From contig JAEOSZ010000111.1 in assembly GCA_016840095.1 (NCBI GenBank), positions 86,612-150,611 of the forward strand: 64,000 nt of DNA. Direction: 5' to 3'. Positions 4,231 through 36,892 of the stretch are shown here, piece after piece. The DNA comes from Candidatus Heimdallarchaeota archaeon (GTDB lineage Archaea; Asgardarchaeota; Heimdallarchaeia; Heimdallarchaeales; Heimdallarchaeaceae). Position numbers and translations under genes: made by a program. Each line of letters begins with the position of its first letter. Positions within the stretch are counted from its first letter, which is position 1. The notes beneath the pieces were generated by a model. The model was not told the DNA's origin and did not search any database. It saw only the letters and a program-made list of their open reading frames with translations.

Positions 4231-5157
4231 TTACCCCCTATTTAGGATAAATGATGCTAGATTTTTTGATATACCTTTTTCATTGAATAAGATATTCTGT
4301 GTTATTACTTCTAAGTTTGTTTCATTTTCTATATCTTTCCTGAAATTTCCGTCCGATTCATGAATAATTATTGTGGAACAAACATCTTTGTAGAGCCTAG
4401 CAATACCTAAAGGAGATACCTCAAGTCCTTTTGCTTTCATCAGATTTTCTGTTGGTCCGCTTATTGGCTTATCCCCTATAATTGGACTGATAGCTATACA
4501 TTTACTCTTATTCTTTTCGAGTGTTTCTCTTATTGCGGATACATCTAATATTGGTCCTATGCTGGTTATGGGATTACTTGGGCCTATAATTATTGTATCA
4601 GAGTTAACCAATTCTTCTTGTGCAGAACGAGAAAAAATAGCATTTTCCACATTTCTTACATAGATATTCTTTATTTCTGTTTCTCCTTTATGTTTAACCC
4701 AAAATTCCTGGAAGTGAATATCTTCATCGTTGTTTGTAACTATACGCGTTTCAATGTGGTTTTCTGAACTTGGATAGATTTTACTTCTTATTCCTAACTT
4801 GTTTATTAAAGAATTAATTATTGAAGACTGGTTCTTTCCGTTCTGCATTTCAAATGTTCTGAAAATATGCAAACCTAAATCTTTGTCTCCTAATCTGAAC
4901 CATGTATCTATTCCATATCTGTTTAGAGCATTTAATGTATTGAAGGATTCATCCTTTACGCCCCAATATTTTTCAACATCTAGTAATTCACTGAAAAGAT
5001 AGAGTATTGTGTCGATATCTGGTGAAACATATAATCCATAGATCCAGATATTATCAGCTGAATTTGCAATAATAGCTAGTTTATCATCATTAATAATTTC
5101 TCTGAATCCTTGTATTAGTTTAGGGGTTCCTGTTCCTCCAGATAGGAAAGTAATCAT
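4231..5157 (-). CDS. cofD: 2-phospho-L-lactate transferase CofD
   Basis: LSGGTGTPKL, VSPDIDTILY, WFRLGDKDLGLH, IHFQEFWV, IGPSNPITSIGPIL. Confidence 0.93.
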   Translation of the reverse strand: MITFLSGGTGTPKLIQGFREIINDDKLAIIANSADNIWIYGLYVSPDIDTILYLFSELLDVEKYWGVKDESFNTLNALNRYGIDTWFRLGDKDLGLHIFRTFEMQNGKNQSSIINSLINKLGIRSKIYPSSENHIETRIVTNNDEDIHFQEFWVKHKGETEIKNIYVRNVENAIFSRSAQEELVNSDTIIIGPSNPITSIGPILDVSAIRETLEKNKSKCIAISPIIGDKPISGPTENLMKAKGLEVSPLGIARLYKDVCSTIIIHESDGNFRKDIENETNLEVITQNILFNEKGISKNLASFILNRG

Positions 5158-30847: not shown

Positions 30848-32593
30848 TCAGTTATCTTTCTCTCTATTGTTTTCTTTCTCTATTTCACTTGAAGGACTGA
30901 CTGAAGTAGGATGTAGGTATACTTCTCCATCTAAAATCGTATATGGTATTCTTCTTTCATCTATCCATGGAGCTGTTTCTCTGAATTCCTTGAACATATC
31001 ATTACTCACAATCATGGCATTCTCTTCTTCTGCTAGACGCAGAATGAATTTATCACCATCAACTCTAGCAGGTAACATTTTCATCGCTCCTTCCTTGACT
31101 AACCTATCTAACCGTTTTTGTTCATCAATTTGGTATCGCAATGCTGCATCTGCAACCGTAACGATTTTCTTGAAATTAGCTCTACTTAATCGATTGATCA
31201 TTGCTTCTATATTATTTATTTGTGGTTTATTTGAAAGACTCTTTTCTTCCCATGCTATATTTGAACCATCTAGAATAACCGTTTCTAAAGGATACGATAC
31301 TTCAGGGAAAATTCTTGAGCTTGTAGTTCGAACTCTTCTTGCAATTCCTAAAATGATATCTCTAGAGTAATAAGCTAAACCTATAATCAGTGAAACAAAG
31401 AAGATACTGTAAAAAATAATTGGTTGAAAAATAATTGGAGAGCTTTCAACTGGTATAACTGATACAGCTTGAAATTGTGTAAATAGAAGGATAGTATACC
31501 ATTTCGTCTCAGATACTGTAATCCATTCTAAATCTATACTAAAGGATAATGGGTGTGTTCCATCAATTTGAGGAACACCATAAATGTAATTGTTGTGTCT
31601 ACCTCCCGCAATTCCCACAGAAACATCTTCAATACCTTCAAAAATTATCTGATCGCAATGAATCTCTGGAACAACGTATAACGTTTCATTTTCGTTGTTA
31701 ATTATCTGATATGTTATCACATAATCCTCTCCCATATTCACAGAAATAGGTAGTTGAAAACTGTCAATAACTAAATCAGGTTCTACGATTATTTCTAGTG
31801 GATCACTTAGATAAACCCTTGGAGTATCTGGATCATCAATAGTTCTAAAGGTTATTGTAAATGAGTGTTTTTGGAAAAGGTAATCATCAGGATAGAATGA
31901 AATTATACCATCGTAAAATGCCCCTTCTGCAATTTCAATATTCTGTATTGAATGCGATCTTGTCATTGAACCATCTGTTCCAGTTTTTGTAATTTCATTT
32001 GTTACAGTTACATTTGTAACTGTAGTCCCTCCTACATTATTTATTCTACATGAAACTTGATTATCTTGATACCTTGTAAGAAAAGCAGGATTTGAAGGAA
32101 AGAACATCCTGACTTGTCCGAAAGGTAGAACAATTAGAGTAAAGGATGCTGTAGCATTGTAAGTTGTTGTTGTAGTACTGTTCGCAACAGCTTTAACAGT
32201 AAAAACTCCTCCGTCTTGACCATTAAAAGTTTGCCAAGGGACTGTACGATTGAATTCATCTGTCGTATTTACCCAAACAGTTTCTTCGAAGATATTCTCA
32301 CTAAAAGTGTTAGAGATATTGTAATAAACAGTTGAATCAGGGATTAGTGTATTATTTTCGTAGCAAAACTTCATAGTTAAATTGAGATCGTTTACTCCTC
32401 TAGTAATCTCTGATGGATTTGTATAAAAGCTGAAAGTAGCATTTTCAAAGCTTTGAATAACATATCGAGAGTTCTCTTCTATAGGAGGTTCTATAGCTAG
32501 TGCTACATTAGAAGTAGGATTAACAGTCATTGCCAAAAAGAAAATTCCTACTAAAACTATTAGAATGCTATTATTCAATAACCTCCTAAGCAT
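30848..32593 (-). CDS. Single-pass membrane protein: signal peptide, Ig-like ectodomains, TM, cytoplasmic NYN/Zc3h12a(Regnase)-like PIN RNase
   Basis: N-terminal signal peptide; sequon-rich beta ectodomain; TM IIFYSIFFVSLIIGLAYY; VILDGSNIAW, VADAAL, DGDKFIL, IVSNDMFKEF, WIDERRIPY. Confidence 0.85.
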   Translation of the reverse strand: MLRRLLNNSILIVLVGIFFLAMTVNPTSNVALAIEPPIEENSRYVIQSFENATFSFYTNPSEITRGVNDLNLTMKFCYENNTLIPDSTVYYNISNTFSENIFEETVWVNTTDEFNRTVPWQTFNGQDGGVFTVKAVANSTTTTTYNATASFTLIVLPFGQVRMFFPSNPAFLTRYQDNQVSCRINNVGGTTVTNVTVTNEITKTGTDGSMTRSHSIQNIEIAEGAFYDGIISFYPDDYLFQKHSFTITFRTIDDPDTPRVYLSDPLEIIVEPDLVIDSFQLPISVNMGEDYVITYQIINNENETLYVVPEIHCDQIIFEGIEDVSVGIAGGRHNNYIYGVPQIDGTHPLSFSIDLEWITVSETKWYTILLFTQFQAVSVIPVESSPIIFQPIIFYSIFFVSLIIGLAYYSRDIILGIARRVRTTSSRIFPEVSYPLETVILDGSNIAWEEKSLSNKPQINNIEAMINRLSRANFKKIVTVADAALRYQIDEQKRLDRLVKEGAMKMLPARVDGDKFILRLAEEENAMIVSNDMFKEFRETAPWIDERRIPYTILDGEVYLHPTSVSPSSEIEKENNREKDN

Positions 32594-32687: not shown

Positions 32688-33013
32688 GGACGATGCAGAA
32701 ATACCCCTGATTCTGTTCGGAAGCCATTAGGATCTTCCTGGCAACATTCATCTAAGCACTTTACCCAGTTCTTACGAACTCTACTTAAGCTTGCTCCACG
32801 ATGTTTGACCGTTTCATCGTATCCTAGTTTCTTCTCAGCAATTTATTCTAAACATGTCACCAGTCTATTTATCGCATCATTGTTATCGAAACTAGGGCGT
32901 TCGTTTCTGTTTCAAGAGCCATATTCTCATATGGTGGATTTACATCCACATCGTTATTATGGAGTCAGGAGGTTCCTCAGCAATAAGCCGAAAGTTGCCC
33001 TTTTGCTTCGTCC
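32688..33013 (-). ncRNA. rnpB: RNase P RNA
   Basis: Minus strand 5' GGACGAAGCA...GAGGAACCTCCTGA..., internal ACAGAAACGAA and GAAACGG, 3' ...AACAGAATCAGGGG...TGCATCGTCC. P1 GGACGA/TCGTCC and P4-region CCTCCTGA/TCAGGGG pairings; about 326 nt. Confidence 0.88.
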
Positions 33014-33072: not shown

Positions 33073-34284
33073 CTAGATAACTTTCAGATTTTTACCTATT
33101 TTCTCCATTGCTGCTAAGATATAATCGATTTCTTCCTCAGTATGAGTTGCCATTACACAACATCTTAATCTTCCTGCATCTAGAGGGACAGCTGGATAAA
33201 CTATTGGTGGTACCAATATACCTGCTTTTCTCATTTGTTTTGCAAATCGAAAAGTTTTGACATCATTTCCAATAATGACAGGTACAATGGGCGTATCCTT
33301 ACTCTTTAATGTATCATACCCTAGCTCTTTAACACCATTAATGAAATGAGTATAGTTTTTCTGTAATGCTCTTATTCTCTCTATATCCGTTTCAATTATT
33401 TCTATTGCTTTAAGAGCTACAGCAGCTGATACTGGTGGAAGAGCTGCACTGAAGATAAACGCATTAGAATTGAACTTTAGATAAGTAATAACATCCTTAT
33501 TAGCAGCAATATATCCTCCTATTGATGGAATTGCTTTACTTAAAGTTCCCATGTAAATATCAATAGCTCCAGGTTCAAGATTGAAATAATCATCAATTCC
33601 TCTTCCATTCGGTCCTATAGTTCCTATTGAGTGAGCTTCATCTACCATTGTAAATGCTTTGTGTTGTTTTGCCAATTCAATAATTTCTGGCATCGGAGCT
33701 ATATCTCCATCCATACTATAAACTCCATCTACAATAACAATCACACGTTTGTAATTCTCACGATGTTCTTCAAGAACTTCAGCTAAGTTATCCATGTCAT
33801 TATGATTGAATCTCTTCCAATCTGCTTTTGACAATATACAACCATCATATATACTCTGATGATCATATTTGTCAATAATGATCAAATCATCTTTTCCAAA
33901 CAATGTGGATATCAAAGTCATATTAGTTACATAACCGCTGCTTAGAACCATTGCATCCTCAGTTCTTTTAAATTCAGAAATTTTCTTTTCTAGAGTATGG
34001 TGTAAATCTGTAGTTCCTGTTAGTAACCTAACACCACCTGCTCCTACACCATATTTATCCATAGCTTCATGTCCTACTTTTATGATTTCAGGATGAGTAA
34101 TGAGTCCCAAATAACTATAAGATCCCAACATTAGTAATTCTTGACCATCCACTAGAACTTTACTAGATGCAGCATTTTGGATAGGGAGCATGTAAGAGTT
34201 TAAACCAAGTTTCTCAAAGTACTTGGCTCTCTTTAAGAAATTCTTAATTTTAGTATTATCTGTGATTTTAGTAATTTTTCTCAC
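33073..34284 (-). CDS. PLP-dependent alpha-oxoamine synthase (serine palmitoyltransferase / BioF / Kbl family)
   Basis: MLGSYSYLGL, G.R.L.GT, DHQSI.DG, HNDM, DGVYSMDGD, VDEAHSIG, GTLSKA (PLP Lys), FSAALPP, RLR...ATHT. Confidence 0.9.
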   Translation of the reverse strand: MRKITKITDNTKIKNFLKRAKYFEKLGLNSYMLPIQNAASSKVLVDGQELLMLGSYSYLGLITHPEIIKVGHEAMDKYGVGAGGVRLLTGTTDLHHTLEKKISEFKRTEDAMVLSSGYVTNMTLISTLFGKDDLIIIDKYDHQSIYDGCILSKADWKRFNHNDMDNLAEVLEEHRENYKRVIVIVDGVYSMDGDIAPMPEIIELAKQHKAFTMVDEAHSIGTIGPNGRGIDDYFNLEPGAIDIYMGTLSKAIPSIGGYIAANKDVITYLKFNSNAFIFSAALPPVSAAVALKAIEIIETDIERIRALQKNYTHFINGVKELGYDTLKSKDTPIVPVIIGNDVKTFRFAKQMRKAGILVPPIVYPAVPLDAGRLRCCVMATHTEEEIDYILAAMEKIGKNLKVI

Positions 34285-34887: not shown

Positions 34888-34963
34888 GGGCCAGTAGTTC
34901 AGTGGATAGAATGGCTGCCTGCGGAGCAGTTGGTCGACGGTTCGAATCCGTTCTGGCCCGCCA
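34888..34963 (+). tRNA. tRNA-Arg(GCG), CCA encoded
   Basis: Acceptor GGGCCAG/CTGGCCC; anticodon stem GCTGC/GCAGT with loop CT-GCG-GA; T loop TTCGAAT; G-CCA. Confidence 0.96.
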
Positions 34964-34969
34964 TTTTCT

Positions 34970-36892
34970 TTATTTCTCTCCCACATAGCCATCTCCAAAC
35001 CACTTGAAGATGATTTCATCCATACGTTGTTCTATGCTTTTCTCAATCTCACCATGAAATTTGCTTGGGATATTAACAAGGTTCAGGTTTTTCACTGTTT
35101 CATGTAAAGATCTTCTTTGATGAAAAGTATCTTTCCTTGTTATAATGACCATTCCAGTATCTTTTTCACCGAATTCAGCCAATATTACTATGTTTTCACC
35201 ATAATCTATTTTCATAACTTTTCCAATTTCACCTGCAAAAACTTCACTTATTATATCTTTTGCTGCTCTAACCATCCCACCAAATAACAATATATCATCA
35301 ACTATTTTTTCTGATTTTATATATTTCTTCAAAGGAATTCCGGATCTATGAAGTATTATGAGTTGATTTGGAGAAATTTCGATTGGATCTTCTCCTACAG
35401 TTATTTTATATCTGATTAAATTTACTAACTCTCTTATTGTTTTCTGAGTTTCTAAAATAATCTTTCTTTGTTCTGCTCTATCTTCTGTGCTCAAAATTGA
35501 TATAAATTTCTGATTAATATCTTCAAGAATGTTCTTAACTTCTTTTCTTTGTTGTGTTTCATTGGCAAACGTGTTAAAATCTTCAAGCAGTTTTGTACAT
35601 TTATCTAGTTGAACTTGATTTGGATTTGAAATATAATTGAAAAGATGAACCTGCAGTAAATCTAAAATTATTTTAGCACTAAGGTGATCCATTCTCTTTT
35701 CTCCAGCAACCTTTAGTGCTTGATTTAAGTAACTCAAAGCTTTTGCAATGTTTAATTTTTGTATTTCTTTTTTACCTAAGAGATAGGATATGTGAGGATT
35801 AGAATTTATTTCATCTTCATTCCGACCATCTAGAATGGATGTTAACACTTTATTGAAATCATCGATTTTTCCTTGTTCAATCAATAGTTCAGCTAAAGAA
35901 TAATCCACAAGATCATCTTTTGATCCAATTTCATCCAGTATTTCCTTTGATATAGAAAATTCCTGAATTGAGGTGGTGAATTCCCTTTTCTGAGCATATA
36001 TTTCTCCAAGATGGGAATGTGCAAGAGCTACTGATCTTCTATCTCCCCACCGTTCATACCAAGTTATCACTTCTAATAATCTCTTCAAAGCATTATCTAA
36101 TTTCCCTTCCATTCTCTCAACAACAGCTATGTTTGAAATAGCAGAAATCTTCCCTCTTTCCTTTTTAAGTTCTCTATAACTACTTTGAGCTTGTTCAAAG
36201 TATCTAATCGCTTCTCCCCAGTTTGCACCATATTTCTCCAGAATACCTAAAAGCATTTGAAATAGTGCTACGTAAATTCGATCACCATAGTTTTTTGCTT
36301 GATGCAAAAATTCTTTACACTTATTTTTTGAGATTTCAACGTTTTGTTCTATTCTCTCTAACCATAGTTTACCATAATTACAATTCAACAAAATTTCTTG
36401 GAAGATATCTTTCTTTTCACCTAATAGTAATGATTCTAGATTTTCACATAAATTCTGATAAATCTCTAATGACTCTTTTCTCTTACCCTGCCTATTCTTT
36501 AATCTGGCTATTCCGTGCATACTAAAAGTCTTGATGAAAACATCCTCTGAAGATTTCAATTCTGAAAAGATGATTTCTGCTGATTGGTAATCTCCTTTTC
36601 TGATATGTGCTATACCTTGCCAAAAAAGTAAATAAGCATTGTTTTTGTATTTTTGCAATTCTTGATTCAACATGTCAAATTTTGATAGATTATAGAGTAG
36701 CTTACCCAACATGAAAAGCAATATATCAGAAGGGGTTTCAATTTTATTACGAATATTATTTACAATTTCTAGCTGTTCATTCAAAGAATTTTTAGAGTAT
36801 TTCTGCGCAATTTTCACATATAAATCCCTTTCATCAGATGTCAGAAAACTTGTATAGTGATGAATTTCAGGGAATATTTGTGTTTCAACCAT
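34970..36892 (-). CDS. TPR-repeat protein with C-terminal longin/roadblock-like domain
   Basis: MalT-like TPRs (AISNIAVVERMEGKLDNA, ALAHSHLGEIYAQKREF); C-terminal LIILHRSGIPL...LLFGGMVRAAKDIISEVF. Confidence 0.75.
   Translation of the reverse strand: MVETQIFPEIHHYTSFLTSDERDLYVKIAQKYSKNSLNEQLEIVNNIRNKIETPSDILLFMLGKLLYNLSKFDMLNQELQKYKNNAYLLFWQGIAHIRKGDYQSAEIIFSELKSSEDVFIKTFSMHGIARLKNRQGKRKESLEIYQNLCENLESLLLGEKKDIFQEILLNCNYGKLWLERIEQNVEISKNKCKEFLHQAKNYGDRIYVALFQMLLGILEKYGANWGEAIRYFEQAQSSYRELKKERGKISAISNIAVVERMEGKLDNALKRLLEVITWYERWGDRRSVALAHSHLGEIYAQKREFTTSIQEFSISKEILDEIGSKDDLVDYSLAELLIEQGKIDDFNKVLTSILDGRNEDEINSNPHISYLLGKKEIQKLNIAKALSYLNQALKVAGEKRMDHLSAKIILDLLQVHLFNYISNPNQVQLDKCTKLLEDFNTFANETQQRKEVKNILEDINQKFISILSTEDRAEQRKIILETQKTIRELVNLIRYKITVGEDPIEISPNQLIILHRSGIPLKKYIKSEKIVDDILLFGGMVRAAKDIISEVFAGEIGKVMKIDYGENIVILAEFGEKDTGMVIITRKDTFHQRRSLHETVKNLNLVNIPSKFHGEIEKSIEQRMDEIIFKWFGDGYVGEK

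Follow-up and report, generated by a model that had tools for sequence, protein, structure and literature searches.

Closest described systems

Eukaryotic Zc3h12a RNases (Regnase-1/MCPIP1, ZC3H12B-D, KHNYN and N4BP1) are soluble proteins in which the NYN domain (Pfam PF11977) is accompanied by a CCCH zinc finger or KH domains. Regnase-1 is also membrane-adjacent, sitting at the ER and at ribosomes, and breaks down mRNAs that are being actively translated (PMC7145602). Prokaryotic stand-alone PF11977 proteins consist of the domain with neither ectodomain nor transmembrane (TM) helix, and according to Pfam the members of PF11977 carry from zero to five of the active-site residues (PMC5499597). 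Rae1/YacP of Bacillus subtilis is a soluble bacterial endoribonuclease of the PIN-like/NYN superfamily, belonging to a different Pfam family (NYN_YacP, PF05991), that cuts mRNA upstream of stalled ribosomes in a translation-dependent manner (PMC12407103). Regnase-1 and Rae1/YacP thus set a precedent for NYN-type RNases that act on translating mRNA, the latter being a mechanistic precedent near ribosomes.

RNase Y and RNase E are RNA decay enzymes that a short N-terminal TM or amphipathic helix keeps on the cytoplasmic side of the membrane. They have no large ectodomain, and neither the HD domain of the one nor the catalytic core of the other is related to NYN. The only well-known arrangement of a transmembrane sensor with an RNase is, to our knowledge, that of IRE1 (with which RNase L may be compared), in which a single TM helix links an outside or luminal domain to an endoribonuclease in the cytoplasm. 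The prokaryotic transmembrane receptors that we know of have kinases, cyclases, proteases or anti-sigma factors as output, and a receptor with direct endoribonuclease output is known to us essentially only from eukaryotic IRE1.

Here we describe P0001, a protein encoded in a 64,000-nucleotide stretch of a contig from a Heimdall-group Asgard archaeon (the window). It shares PF11977 and the fold with the eukaryotic Zc3h12a RNases, and differs from them by its signal peptide, its three ectodomains, its TM helix and the lack of a zinc finger. Its predicted placement resembles that of RNase Y and RNase E. The active-site pattern (D, N, the D482 equivalent, A/G-D, S/T-N-D, D/E) is that of the prokaryotic stand-alone proteins, relative to which the P0001 family is far more conserved and adds a C-terminal L-H-P extension. 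A first-pass annotation, made from the sequence, had not recognized a transmembrane RNA-decay signaling or defense system of this kind as described in archaea, and our literature search likewise found no description of this receptor-like NYN family.

Anatomy of the gene and protein

From its N-terminus, P0001 has a signal peptide and three beta-sandwich ectodomains; then come a single TM helix, a run of basic residues and a predicted cytoplasmic NYN domain. The features, all on the minus strand, are as follows.

30848..32593, minus strand: whole gene P0001, a single intact ORF of 581 aa plus stop
32495..32593, minus strand: signal peptide or N-terminal anchor, aa 1-33, with MLRR, a hydrophobic core and a cleavage-like site between ALA and I
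32129..32443, minus strand: ectodomain D1, aa 51-155, a macroglobulin (MG)-like beta-sandwich that bears most of the sequons
31781..32128, minus strand: ectodomain D2, aa 156-271, an ASH/PapD-like beta-sandwich
31448..31780, minus strand: ectodomain D3, aa 272-382, a membrane-proximal MG/CARDB-like beta-sandwich
31364..31438, minus strand: single TM helix, aa 386-410, hydropathy up to 2.23
31283..31363, minus strand: juxtamembrane linker, aa 411-437, starting YYSRD (YFSRD in most members) plus a basic stretch
30908..31282, minus strand: Zc3h12a-type NYN (PIN-like) endoribonuclease domain (PF11977), predicted cytoplasmic, aa 438-562
30851..30907, minus strand: C-terminal tail, aa 563-581, variable and charged, with no Cys/His zinc-finger pattern

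Kyte-Doolittle analysis gave only two hydrophobic segments, aa 5-27 and aa 385-410. The first is the hydropathy peak of the signal peptide, whose M-x-R-R start and hydrophobic core are conserved across the family; the TM region is modeled by AlphaFold as a helix at aa 391-420 and is followed by five K/R residues in GIARRVRTTSSR. Among 55 family members, the 15 aa before the TM helix hold on average 0.42 K+R, versus 4.33 in the 15 aa after it. Sequon density in the family is 3.3 per 100 aa outside and 0.3 inside, where composition leads one to expect 1.5 and 0.6. Charge bias and sequon asymmetry agree on orientation, and P0001 is best described as a predicted type I single-pass membrane glycoprotein with its NYN domain in the cytoplasm. 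The first-pass annotation had proposed this plan (cleavable signal peptide, sequon-dense Ig-like ectodomain, TM helix near 31370-31435, basic residues, cytoplasmic NYN domain with intact acidic residues), and each element was recovered. At about 145 aa, the cytoplasmic part is small.

The linker has a nearly constant length of 28-32 aa across the order-wide family. Positions Y408, F409, S410, R411 and D412 are each at least 90% conserved, and 35 order-wide members share the pattern aromatic-aromatic-basic-x-acidic-(I or L)-R at near-constant spacing from the DGSN motif. The C-terminal tail has a mean pairwise identity of 0.29 and is modeled with pLDDT below 50.

The NYN domain

PF11977 (RNase_Zc3h12a) is the sole Pfam match above cut-off in P0001, scoring 62.9 bits against a gathering cut-off of 23 (E 3.8e-17) over aa 436-557 and profile positions 2-137 of 154; an NCBIfam search returned no family. 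The motifs DGSN, ADAA, DGD and SND are all found. The best structural correspondence is with ZC3H12C (7ndj_A; Z 16.8, rmsd 2.1 over 129 aa, 26% identity), with PRORP1 also matched (4g23_A; Z 12.8), and a cluster of 150-aa NYN proteins in the ESM Atlas, 90% of them annotated as bacterial, superposes at TM 0.81. Sequence matches in the PDB are to KHNYN, ZC3H12B/C and Regnase-1. These eukaryotic sequences score only about 20-28 bits, versus 70-250 bits for prokaryotic relatives, so that a special kinship with eukaryotic Regnase is unsupported.

Using the Regnase-1 active-site residue list (PMC5499597), we found equivalents of D141, N144, D226, S242, D244 and D248 at D442, N445, D514, S530, D532 and E536, the last an Asp to Glu change. 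D442, N445, D482, D514, N531, D532 and E536 are invariant among 26 order-wide sequences, and position 530 is S or T. The position of Regnase D225 is G (or A) at 513 throughout the family, the adjoining D512 is not conserved across the order, and D482 is an extra invariant Asp relative to Regnase. The same combination is common among 123 other prokaryote-type relatives aligned, 97 of which have A/G at the D225 position and 95 an Asp at the equivalent of 482. The active site is thus of the prokaryotic configuration, G/A for D225 plus D482, with an intact catalytic core that would be expected to confer RNase activity.

No zinc finger was found by Pfam search or by inspection of the 19-aa tail after aa 562. 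Because both this finger and D225 are missing, the substrate rules of Regnase are not transferable to P0001. The Regnase-type assignment of the first-pass annotation therefore holds at the level of the RNase_Zc3h12a family, while the active site is prokaryotic and the CCCH finger missing. Its IRE1-like architecture holds only as a layout of sensor, TM helix and RNase: the IRE1 effector is a kinase plus KEN, unrelated to NYN, its sensor domain is unrelated too, and no kinase or KEN domain was matched by Pfam in P0001. For a homodimer of aa 425-570, complex prediction gave a score of 0.00, the mark being 0.42, which is neutral on dimerization.

The ectodomain

The AlphaFold model has three all-beta domains, with pLDDT above 90 over aa 50-380. 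D1 matches an MG domain of alpha-2-macroglobulin (2p9r_B; Z 11.9, rmsd 2.3 over 95 aa), D2 matches 6fvi_A (Z 10.6, rmsd 3.2 over 112 aa), and D3 matches 7e1y_A (Z 10.5) and 6rqj_A (Z 10.2). Two weak, sub-threshold Pfam matches fall in D3: A2M with E 0.044, and CARDB with E 0.15 and 12.7 bits where 22.7 are required. The ESM Atlas neighbors of D3, of the CARDB/NPCBM_assoc/COG1361 S-layer family, are leads only, with a feature score of 0.85 and structural TM scores of 0.16-0.37; the beta-sandwich fold as such is clear from the structural matches. Neither Pfam nor structural comparison identified a recognized ligand-binding domain in the ectodomain, and the MG, CARDB and ASH sandwiches are generic folds, used as well in purely structural archaeal surface proteins. 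A lead to TRAP-beta (8b5l_q, Z 9.1, plus one Atlas row) was dropped because there were many equal Ig-like matches and no sequence support.

Ten N-glycosylation sequons lie in the ectodomain: NAT51, NLT71, NNT80, NIS92, NTT109, NRT115, NST138, NAT146, NVT194 and NET302. Seven of these positions (N51, N80, N92, N109, N115 and N138 in D1, and N194 in D2) are kept in at least 42 of 55 sequences. The 340-aa ectodomain is present in every family member and is under purifying selection, yet it evolves much faster than the NYN domain, mean pairwise identity in the family being 0.37-0.48 for the ectodomains versus 0.82 for NYN. No ectodomain without NYN was found with aa 45-385 as query (candidates of 187-597 aa), the search, which covered proteins up to 1017 aa, giving family members and fragments only.

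Distribution and genomic neighborhood

We found orthologs of 566-648 aa, mostly single-copy, in 39 of the 46 other genomes of Heimdallarchaeales; by the four families of the order the counts are 26/30, 1/1, 2/3 and 10/12 genomes. Full-length orthologs share 42-84% identity, and in the NYN tree the family comes out as a single clade (33 rows, SH-like support 97). The closest relatives outside the family, P0097-P0100, are soluble NYN proteins with a length of just 150-210 aa. The fusion is not an assembly chimera, a possibility that the first-pass annotation had raised, because 66 database proteins have this architecture and single-contig genomes of the family encode it as well. P0001 appears from these sequences to be a core, vertically inherited gene of this one archaeal order.

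Directly upstream of P0001 lies a non-coding RNA gene.

32691..33010, minus strand: archaeal RNase P RNA gene, same strand as P0001 (RF00373, 156.8 bits)

This adjacency is kept at all five loci checked in the window's own family (the window, L002, L004, L022 and L023) and is missing at 11 loci of other families. It is read as lineage synteny because it is confined to the one family; a functional link, which might have been suggested by the PRORP fold being NYN as well, was rejected since other families do without the adjacency. Neighbors are the RNase P RNA, proteasome subunits, ThrRS, an AlaX-like editing protein, phosphatases and metabolic genes. All-against-all BLAST of the ORFs of 22 loci gave three or four lineage-specific gene contexts and no neighbor universal across the order. 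At 7 loci the gene adjoins one for a 605-aa PIN-like protein, which the window's own genome encodes on other contigs. A scan for sigma-70 promoters and terminators, a model not applicable to archaea, gave sites no commoner than in shuffled sequence.

TM-NYN fusions in other archaea

A TM helix lies directly upstream of NYN in 31 of 31 closest cluster representatives. Four Promethearchaeota proteins (P0225, P0140, P0226 and P0227) have a signal peptide, a PQQ beta-propeller, a TM helix, a basic stretch and a PF11977 NYN domain. Their logic of signal peptide, ectodomain, TM helix, basic stretch and NYN is that of P0001, whereas the ectodomain is an unrelated propeller and the NYN domain falls outside the Heimdall clade. 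The group is rare, with four database clusters (P0140, which includes P0225; P0226; P0227), each sharing at least 81% identity with P0225. Other matches of that search have the same type of PQQ propeller joined to protein kinases. In Thermofilaceae, P0116 fuses an uncharacterized 200-aa ectodomain to TM-NYN. Different ectodomains have joined TM-NYN independently, which supports NYN as an output module of surface receptors. Simpler proteins also occur: P0125 and P0179 manage with an N-terminal TM anchor, so tethering alone could be the point of the fusion.

Proposed function and alternatives

Our preferred reading, to which we assign a probability of about 0.45, is that P0001 is a receptor-like membrane RNase of Heimdallarchaeales that serves envelope or secretion housekeeping or regulation rather than mobile defense. 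Three N-glycosylated beta-sandwich domains would face outward, and the predicted metal-dependent NYN RNase would lie about 30 residues below the inner membrane face. Binding to an envelope component, to a ligand or to another copy would set the state of the ectodomain; this state could be relayed by the TM helix and the juxtamembrane segment of fixed length, and would in turn set the activity or clustering of NYN. The nuclease would then cleave RNA at the membrane, most plausibly mRNAs that membrane-bound ribosomes are translating. Our analysis shows the anatomy, the topology indicators, the fold, the conservation of the catalytic residues, the phyletic spread and the re-use of TM-NYN as a module; we infer the RNase activity, the outside-in coupling and the substrate class. 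The reading can be put more specifically as a one-component transmembrane pathway with RNA cleavage as output, in which a cue from outside or from the envelope, picked up by the three glycoprotein domains, would itself gate the cytoplasmic NYN endoribonuclease acting on membrane-associated mRNAs. NYN would then be a general archaeal receptor output domain, re-used with beta-propeller and other sensors; this we offer tentatively, as rather doubtful.

A similar standing, serious and still on the unlikely side, is given to a constitutive membrane-tethered RNase, a counterpart of RNase Y or RNase E whose ectodomain merely anchors or positions it and does no signaling. A near-universal, mostly single-copy gene in a housekeeping neighborhood suits such an enzyme, as do the very strong NYN constraint (0.82 mean identity), the generic structural folds of the ectodomain and the recurrent tethering of NYN seen in the short N-terminal-TM proteins. 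However, three domains and 340 aa with conserved sequons far exceed the needs of an anchor, the linker has a fixed length and a conserved motif, and propeller ectodomains of sensor type were fused independently to TM-NYN; these features fit the receptor-like reading better. Release of the nuclease by regulated proteolysis is considerably less probable. By analogy with ATF6 or RsiW, the ectodomain would be shed and an intramembrane cut would free a soluble NYN for the cytoplasm, a scheme compatible with the single-pass type I layout, with the Pro and Gly in or near the TM helix, and with the nearest outside relatives, whose short soluble form indicates that NYN can work untethered. Yet no protease gene is linked to the P0001 family, specific cleavage-site signals are absent from the sequence, and a conserved linker of fixed length speaks for a nuclease that works on its tether.

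The first-pass annotation gave a defense system as one option, and this part of it is not supported. An antiviral or abortive-infection sensor, in which virus attachment or envelope damage would trigger shutdown of host and viral RNA, is suggested by the cleavage of viral RNA by eukaryotic Zc3h12a RNases (PMC5499597) and by a surface-exposed domain that evolves faster than the effector. STAND/AAA_16-NYN fusions are found among the relatives (P0112 and P0163) and point the same way. Fusions of this type are typical of conflict systems. Against this stand near-universal, mostly one-copy occurrence across the order, descent as one clade, lineage-stable synteny among housekeeping genes, and the lack of mobile-element or defense-island context at the loci examined and of any immunity or antitoxin-like partner; PADLOC, whose library covers described systems only, matched no family at E up to 0.1. 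We consider such a sensor improbable. Least probable of all is that NYN is not an RNase and binds RNA, DNA, the ribosome or some other substrate, the main role being extracellular adhesion or an envelope lattice. PF11977 members with few or no active-site residues do exist (PMC5499597), the D225 position is Gly, and the ectodomain resembles S-layer-family or adhesin arrays. Nevertheless, seven active-site residues have stayed invariant across the order while their flanks diverged to 40-50% identity, and G/A for D225 plus D482 is the norm among the 123 relatives, not decay.

Significance

The P0001 family occurs in the Heimdall class of archaea, to which the closest known relatives of eukaryotes belong. 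Direct ancestry of the eukaryotic Regnase proteins is not supported, since the NYN domain of P0001 is of prokaryotic type. A conserved, order-wide archaeal family joins a surface glycoprotein to a Regnase-family RNase domain, and elsewhere in the archaea this output is fused to different ectodomains. If the one-component pathway proposed above is true, prokaryotes would have in it a functional analogue of IRE1/RIDD or of ER-localized Regnase-1. Archaea, as far as we know, have neither RNase E nor RNase Y; coupling of the ectodomain to the nuclease, if true, would give them a membrane-localized RNA-decay enzyme and would be a new way of controlling gene expression from the outside in.

Anatomy and topology of P0001

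The TM-NYN gene and its single internal TM segment are located in the window as follows.

30848..32593 (-), gene for P0001, one unbroken ORF of 581 aa by ORF reading
31364..31438 (-), TM segment, aa 385-410 by hydropathy, with five Lys/Arg directly after it

The anatomy of P0001 is solid. Hydropathy finds only two hydrophobic segments, aa 5-27 and aa 385-410; the first follows an MLRR start and precedes a cleavage-like site (between ALA and I), and the approximately 350 residues between the two hold ten N-x-S/T sequons. Beyond the TM segment, aa 436-557 match the Pfam family PF11977 (RNase_Zc3h12a NYN) at 62.9 bits (E = 3.8e-17; cut-off 23 bits). NCBIfam provided no family for P0001, and its PDB matches by sequence are KHNYN, ZC3H12B/C and Regnase-1. 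The first-pass annotation had described a signal-peptide-like start, a sequon-rich ectodomain and one TM helix at 31370-31435, all borne out here apart from slightly different TM limits, and the motifs that it quoted (DGSN, ADAA, DGD, SND and ARRVR) are all present.

We examined topology in 55 full-length family members. On average, the 15 residues that precede the TM segment hold 0.42 Lys plus Arg, and the 15 that follow it hold 4.33. The ectodomain has 3.3 sequons per 100 aa and the C-terminal part 0.3, whereas composition alone would give 1.5 and 0.6, and seven sequon positions are kept in at least 42 of the 55 sequences. Archaeal N-glycosylation takes place outside the cell, so charge bias, sequon density and sequon conservation agree in predicting an outside position for the beta-domains and a cytoplasmic one for NYN. 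Cleavage of the N-terminal segment, or its absence, makes no difference to this.

Translation may start at ATG or at a downstream TTG, and the choice is slightly uncertain, because the Arg-Arg codons of MLRR (32579..32593, minus strand) spell AGGAGG with an in-frame TTG a few bases downstream, and in Heimdallarchaeum aukensis the same GGAGGT serves as a Shine-Dalgarno-like element before ATG. The N-terminus is hydrophobic from either start.

Predicted structure

An AlphaFold2 model of P0001 was built from the 55-sequence family alignment, with mean pLDDT 82.7 and values above 90 over aa 50-380. It contains the following parts.

about aa 51-155, D1, all-beta
about aa 156-271, D2, all-beta
about aa 272-382, D3, all-beta
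aa 391-420, long helix
aa 417-430, low-confidence stretch
aa 438-562, alpha/beta domain (NYN)

The model domains were compared exhaustively with PDB representatives. The best match of the NYN domain is RNA-bound ZC3H12C (7ndj_A; Z 16.8, rmsd 2.1 Å over 129 residues, 26% identity), followed by PRORP1 (Z 12.8). D1 matches macroglobulin (MG) domains (2p9r_B, Z 11.9), D2 matches ASH/PapD-like domains (6fvi_A, Z 10.6), and D3 matches MG/CARDB-like domains (Z about 10.5). By these matches the ectodomain is a set of generic surface-protein sandwiches, with no recognisable ligand-binding fold in the model. Foldseek and the ESM Atlas agree; their matches are Ig-like domains in tandem and CARDB, NPCBM_assoc and 'COG1361 S-layer family' proteins of archaea, at low scores that serve as leads only.

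Active site and kinship of the NYN domain

The Regnase-1 site comprises D141, D225, D226, D244 and D248 (PMC5499597). Alignment gave the following correspondences.

Residues of Regnase-1 and their P0001 equivalents
D141, D442
N144, N445
D226, D514
S242, S530
D244, D532
D248, E536

Across a 26-sequence alignment spanning the order-level family, D442, N445, D514, D532, E536, D482, R486, R519, R548 and H561 are invariant, and position 530 is Ser or Thr only. The position of Regnase D225 is Gly or Ala in the family, and the neighbouring D512 is unconserved. The family HMM was used to align 123 further relatives, of which 97 likewise have Ala or Gly there and 95 have Asp at the equivalent of position 482; the residue is therefore no sign of decay, and the domain is a normal member of the prokaryotic PF11977 branch. 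A survey of the PIN superfamily lists the function of this branch as unknown (PMC5499597). Unlike eukaryotic Regnase/ZC3H12 proteins, P0001 has no CCCH finger. Scores to eukaryotic proteins are about 20-28 bits vs. 70-250 bits to prokaryotic relatives, and thus the sequence comparison gives no evidence for a special Asgard-to-eukaryote relationship of the domain.

Distribution and other NYN architectures

We found 66 relatives of P0001 among 5.8 billion proteins, nearly all of 555-597 aa and nearly all with PF11977; every named source is a metagenome-assembled genome of Heimdallarchaeota or Heimdallarchaeaceae, among them the circularised genome of Ca. Heimdallarchaeum aukensis. With the NYN domain alone as query, exhaustive HMMER searching yielded 31 cluster representatives at E < 1e-30, and a hydropathy scan placed a TM segment directly upstream of NYN in every non-fragment. 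A census of the phylum covered 400 genomes, counting high-scoring matches in ORFs of 566-648 aa (shorter at contig ends). In the four families of Heimdallarchaeales, 26/30, 1/1, 2/3 and 10/12 genomes have an ortholog, as a single copy in most and in the window's own genome; the remaining genomes of the phylum gave only weak matches, to other NYN architectures. FastTree analysis of 145 NYN domains groups the family as one clade (33 rows, SH-like support 97), at a resolution limited by 136 columns and no bootstrap.

Two other ectodomain-TM-NYN designs were found. In the Promethearchaeota proteins P0225, P0140, P0226 and P0227 a signal peptide is followed by a PQQ-type beta-propeller (PF13570, E = 8e-76), a TM helix, a KKK stretch and the PF11977 domain. 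This design is rare, with four database clusters (P0140 including P0225, plus P0226 and P0227), each with 81% identity or more to P0225. The same search matched P0312 and P0320, in which this propeller is joined to protein kinases; receptor kinases thus use it as their extracellular part. The third design, outside Asgard, comes from Thermofilaceae metagenome-assembled genomes (P0116, P0217); the 454-aa P0116 has a signal peptide, an ectodomain of ~200 aa of no known type, a TM helix, a coiled-coil-like stretch and a PF11977 NYN domain. The NYN domains of both designs fall outside the Heimdall clade in the FastTree analysis, and these fusions therefore look independent of the Heimdall family. 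Short proteins with an N-terminal TM and NYN also exist (P0125, P0179 and others), and the relatives P0112, P0163 and P0145 include soluble fusions, AAA_16/STAND-NTPase-NYN (about 900 aa) and TPR-NYN (505 aa). The prokaryotic Zc3h12a-type NYN domain is an effector module put to use in many architectures.

Gene neighborhood

The TM-NYN gene has the following neighbors.

32691..33010 (-), RNase P RNA gene (rnpB), upstream, RF00373, 156.8 bits
27578..30763 (-), co-oriented downstream block: 238-aa MarR-like winged-helix protein, proteasome beta, proteasome alpha, 348-aa metallo-beta-lactamase/RMMBL-like protein

The gap to rnpB, on the same strand, is about 100 bp. This adjacency holds at 5/5 loci of Heimdallarchaeaceae and 0/11 loci of other families. 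The block from rnpB through the NYN, winged-helix and proteasome genes to the metallo-beta-lactamase-fold gene is common to the five loci, with the winged-helix gene on the opposite strand in H. aukensis; proteasome genes also lie at most two genes from the NYN gene, in differing arrangements, at loci L018 and L019. One group of other-family loci has a ~605-aa PIN-like protein, ThrRS and an AlaX-like editing protein, and another has a glycerate-kinase-like protein or metallophosphatase plus alkaline phosphatase. No universal neighbor was found across the compared loci.

The ~605-aa protein (L005:4104-5915; relatives in L009, L010, L012, L014, L015 and L018) adjoins the TM-NYN gene at these seven loci in either orientation; its N-terminal PIN-domain match is weak (E about 1e-3, under the cut-off), and two paralogs are on other contigs of the window's genome (C30:3780-5495 and C1:25314-27047). 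A TATA-like element, TTTATTAA, between rnpB and the TM-NYN gene is conserved in three aligned genomes. Upstream of rnpB are a class-II aminotransferase of AONS/KBL/serine-palmitoyltransferase type (33073..34284, minus strand; PF00155, E 3.5e-57), which recurs in L004 and L023, a tRNA gene (34888..34960, plus strand), and a 640-aa TPR-repeat protein (34970..36892, minus strand), also found in L004. The H. aukensis locus carries a Cas12f/TnpB-like fragment (PF07282; L002:4227-4547) immediately upstream of rnpB, and the 37-aa 'gene' annotated there at 4670-4783 sits within the RNase P RNA.

Function

Full-text literature searches on NYN with transmembrane archaeal proteins, Asgard Zc3h12a and Heimdallarchaeota NYN yielded no description of the P0001 family, in keeping with the first-pass annotation, which recognised no such described system in archaea; the sole archaeal NYN mention found was a soluble protein of methanogens.

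We commit to reading the family as a receptor-like, core, non-defence membrane RNase, whose gating, dimerisation and substrates we infer. The TM helix and a fixed linker would couple the state of the ectodomain to the cytoplasmic NYN endonuclease, which would cut RNA at the membrane. Regnase-1 is localised to the ER and ribosomes (PMC7145602) and Rae1 is ribosome-dependent (PMC12407103); by analogy with these, the most plausible targets would be mRNAs on membrane-bound ribosomes. Mean pairwise identity is 0.82 for NYN, 0.47 for D1, 0.48 for D2, 0.37 for D3, 0.39 for the TM segment and 0.29 for the tail. At its cytoplasmic end the TM segment has a conserved motif, YFSRD in Heimdallarchaeaceae (YYSRD in P0001) and aromatic-aromatic-basic-x-acidic-[IL]-R across the order, at a nearly constant 28-32 residues from DGSN; motif and spacing together suggest that the linker has a defined geometry and is no floppy tether. 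The main competing reading is a constitutive membrane tether whose ectodomain is purely structural.

Defence, raised as an option by the first-pass annotation, is less likely: every compared context consists of housekeeping genes, and PADLOC, which covers described systems, assigned P0001 to no defence family. These results and the phyletic pattern speak against a mobile defence system. Proteolytic release of the NYN domain and a non-catalytic role for it are also less likely than the receptor-like RNase.
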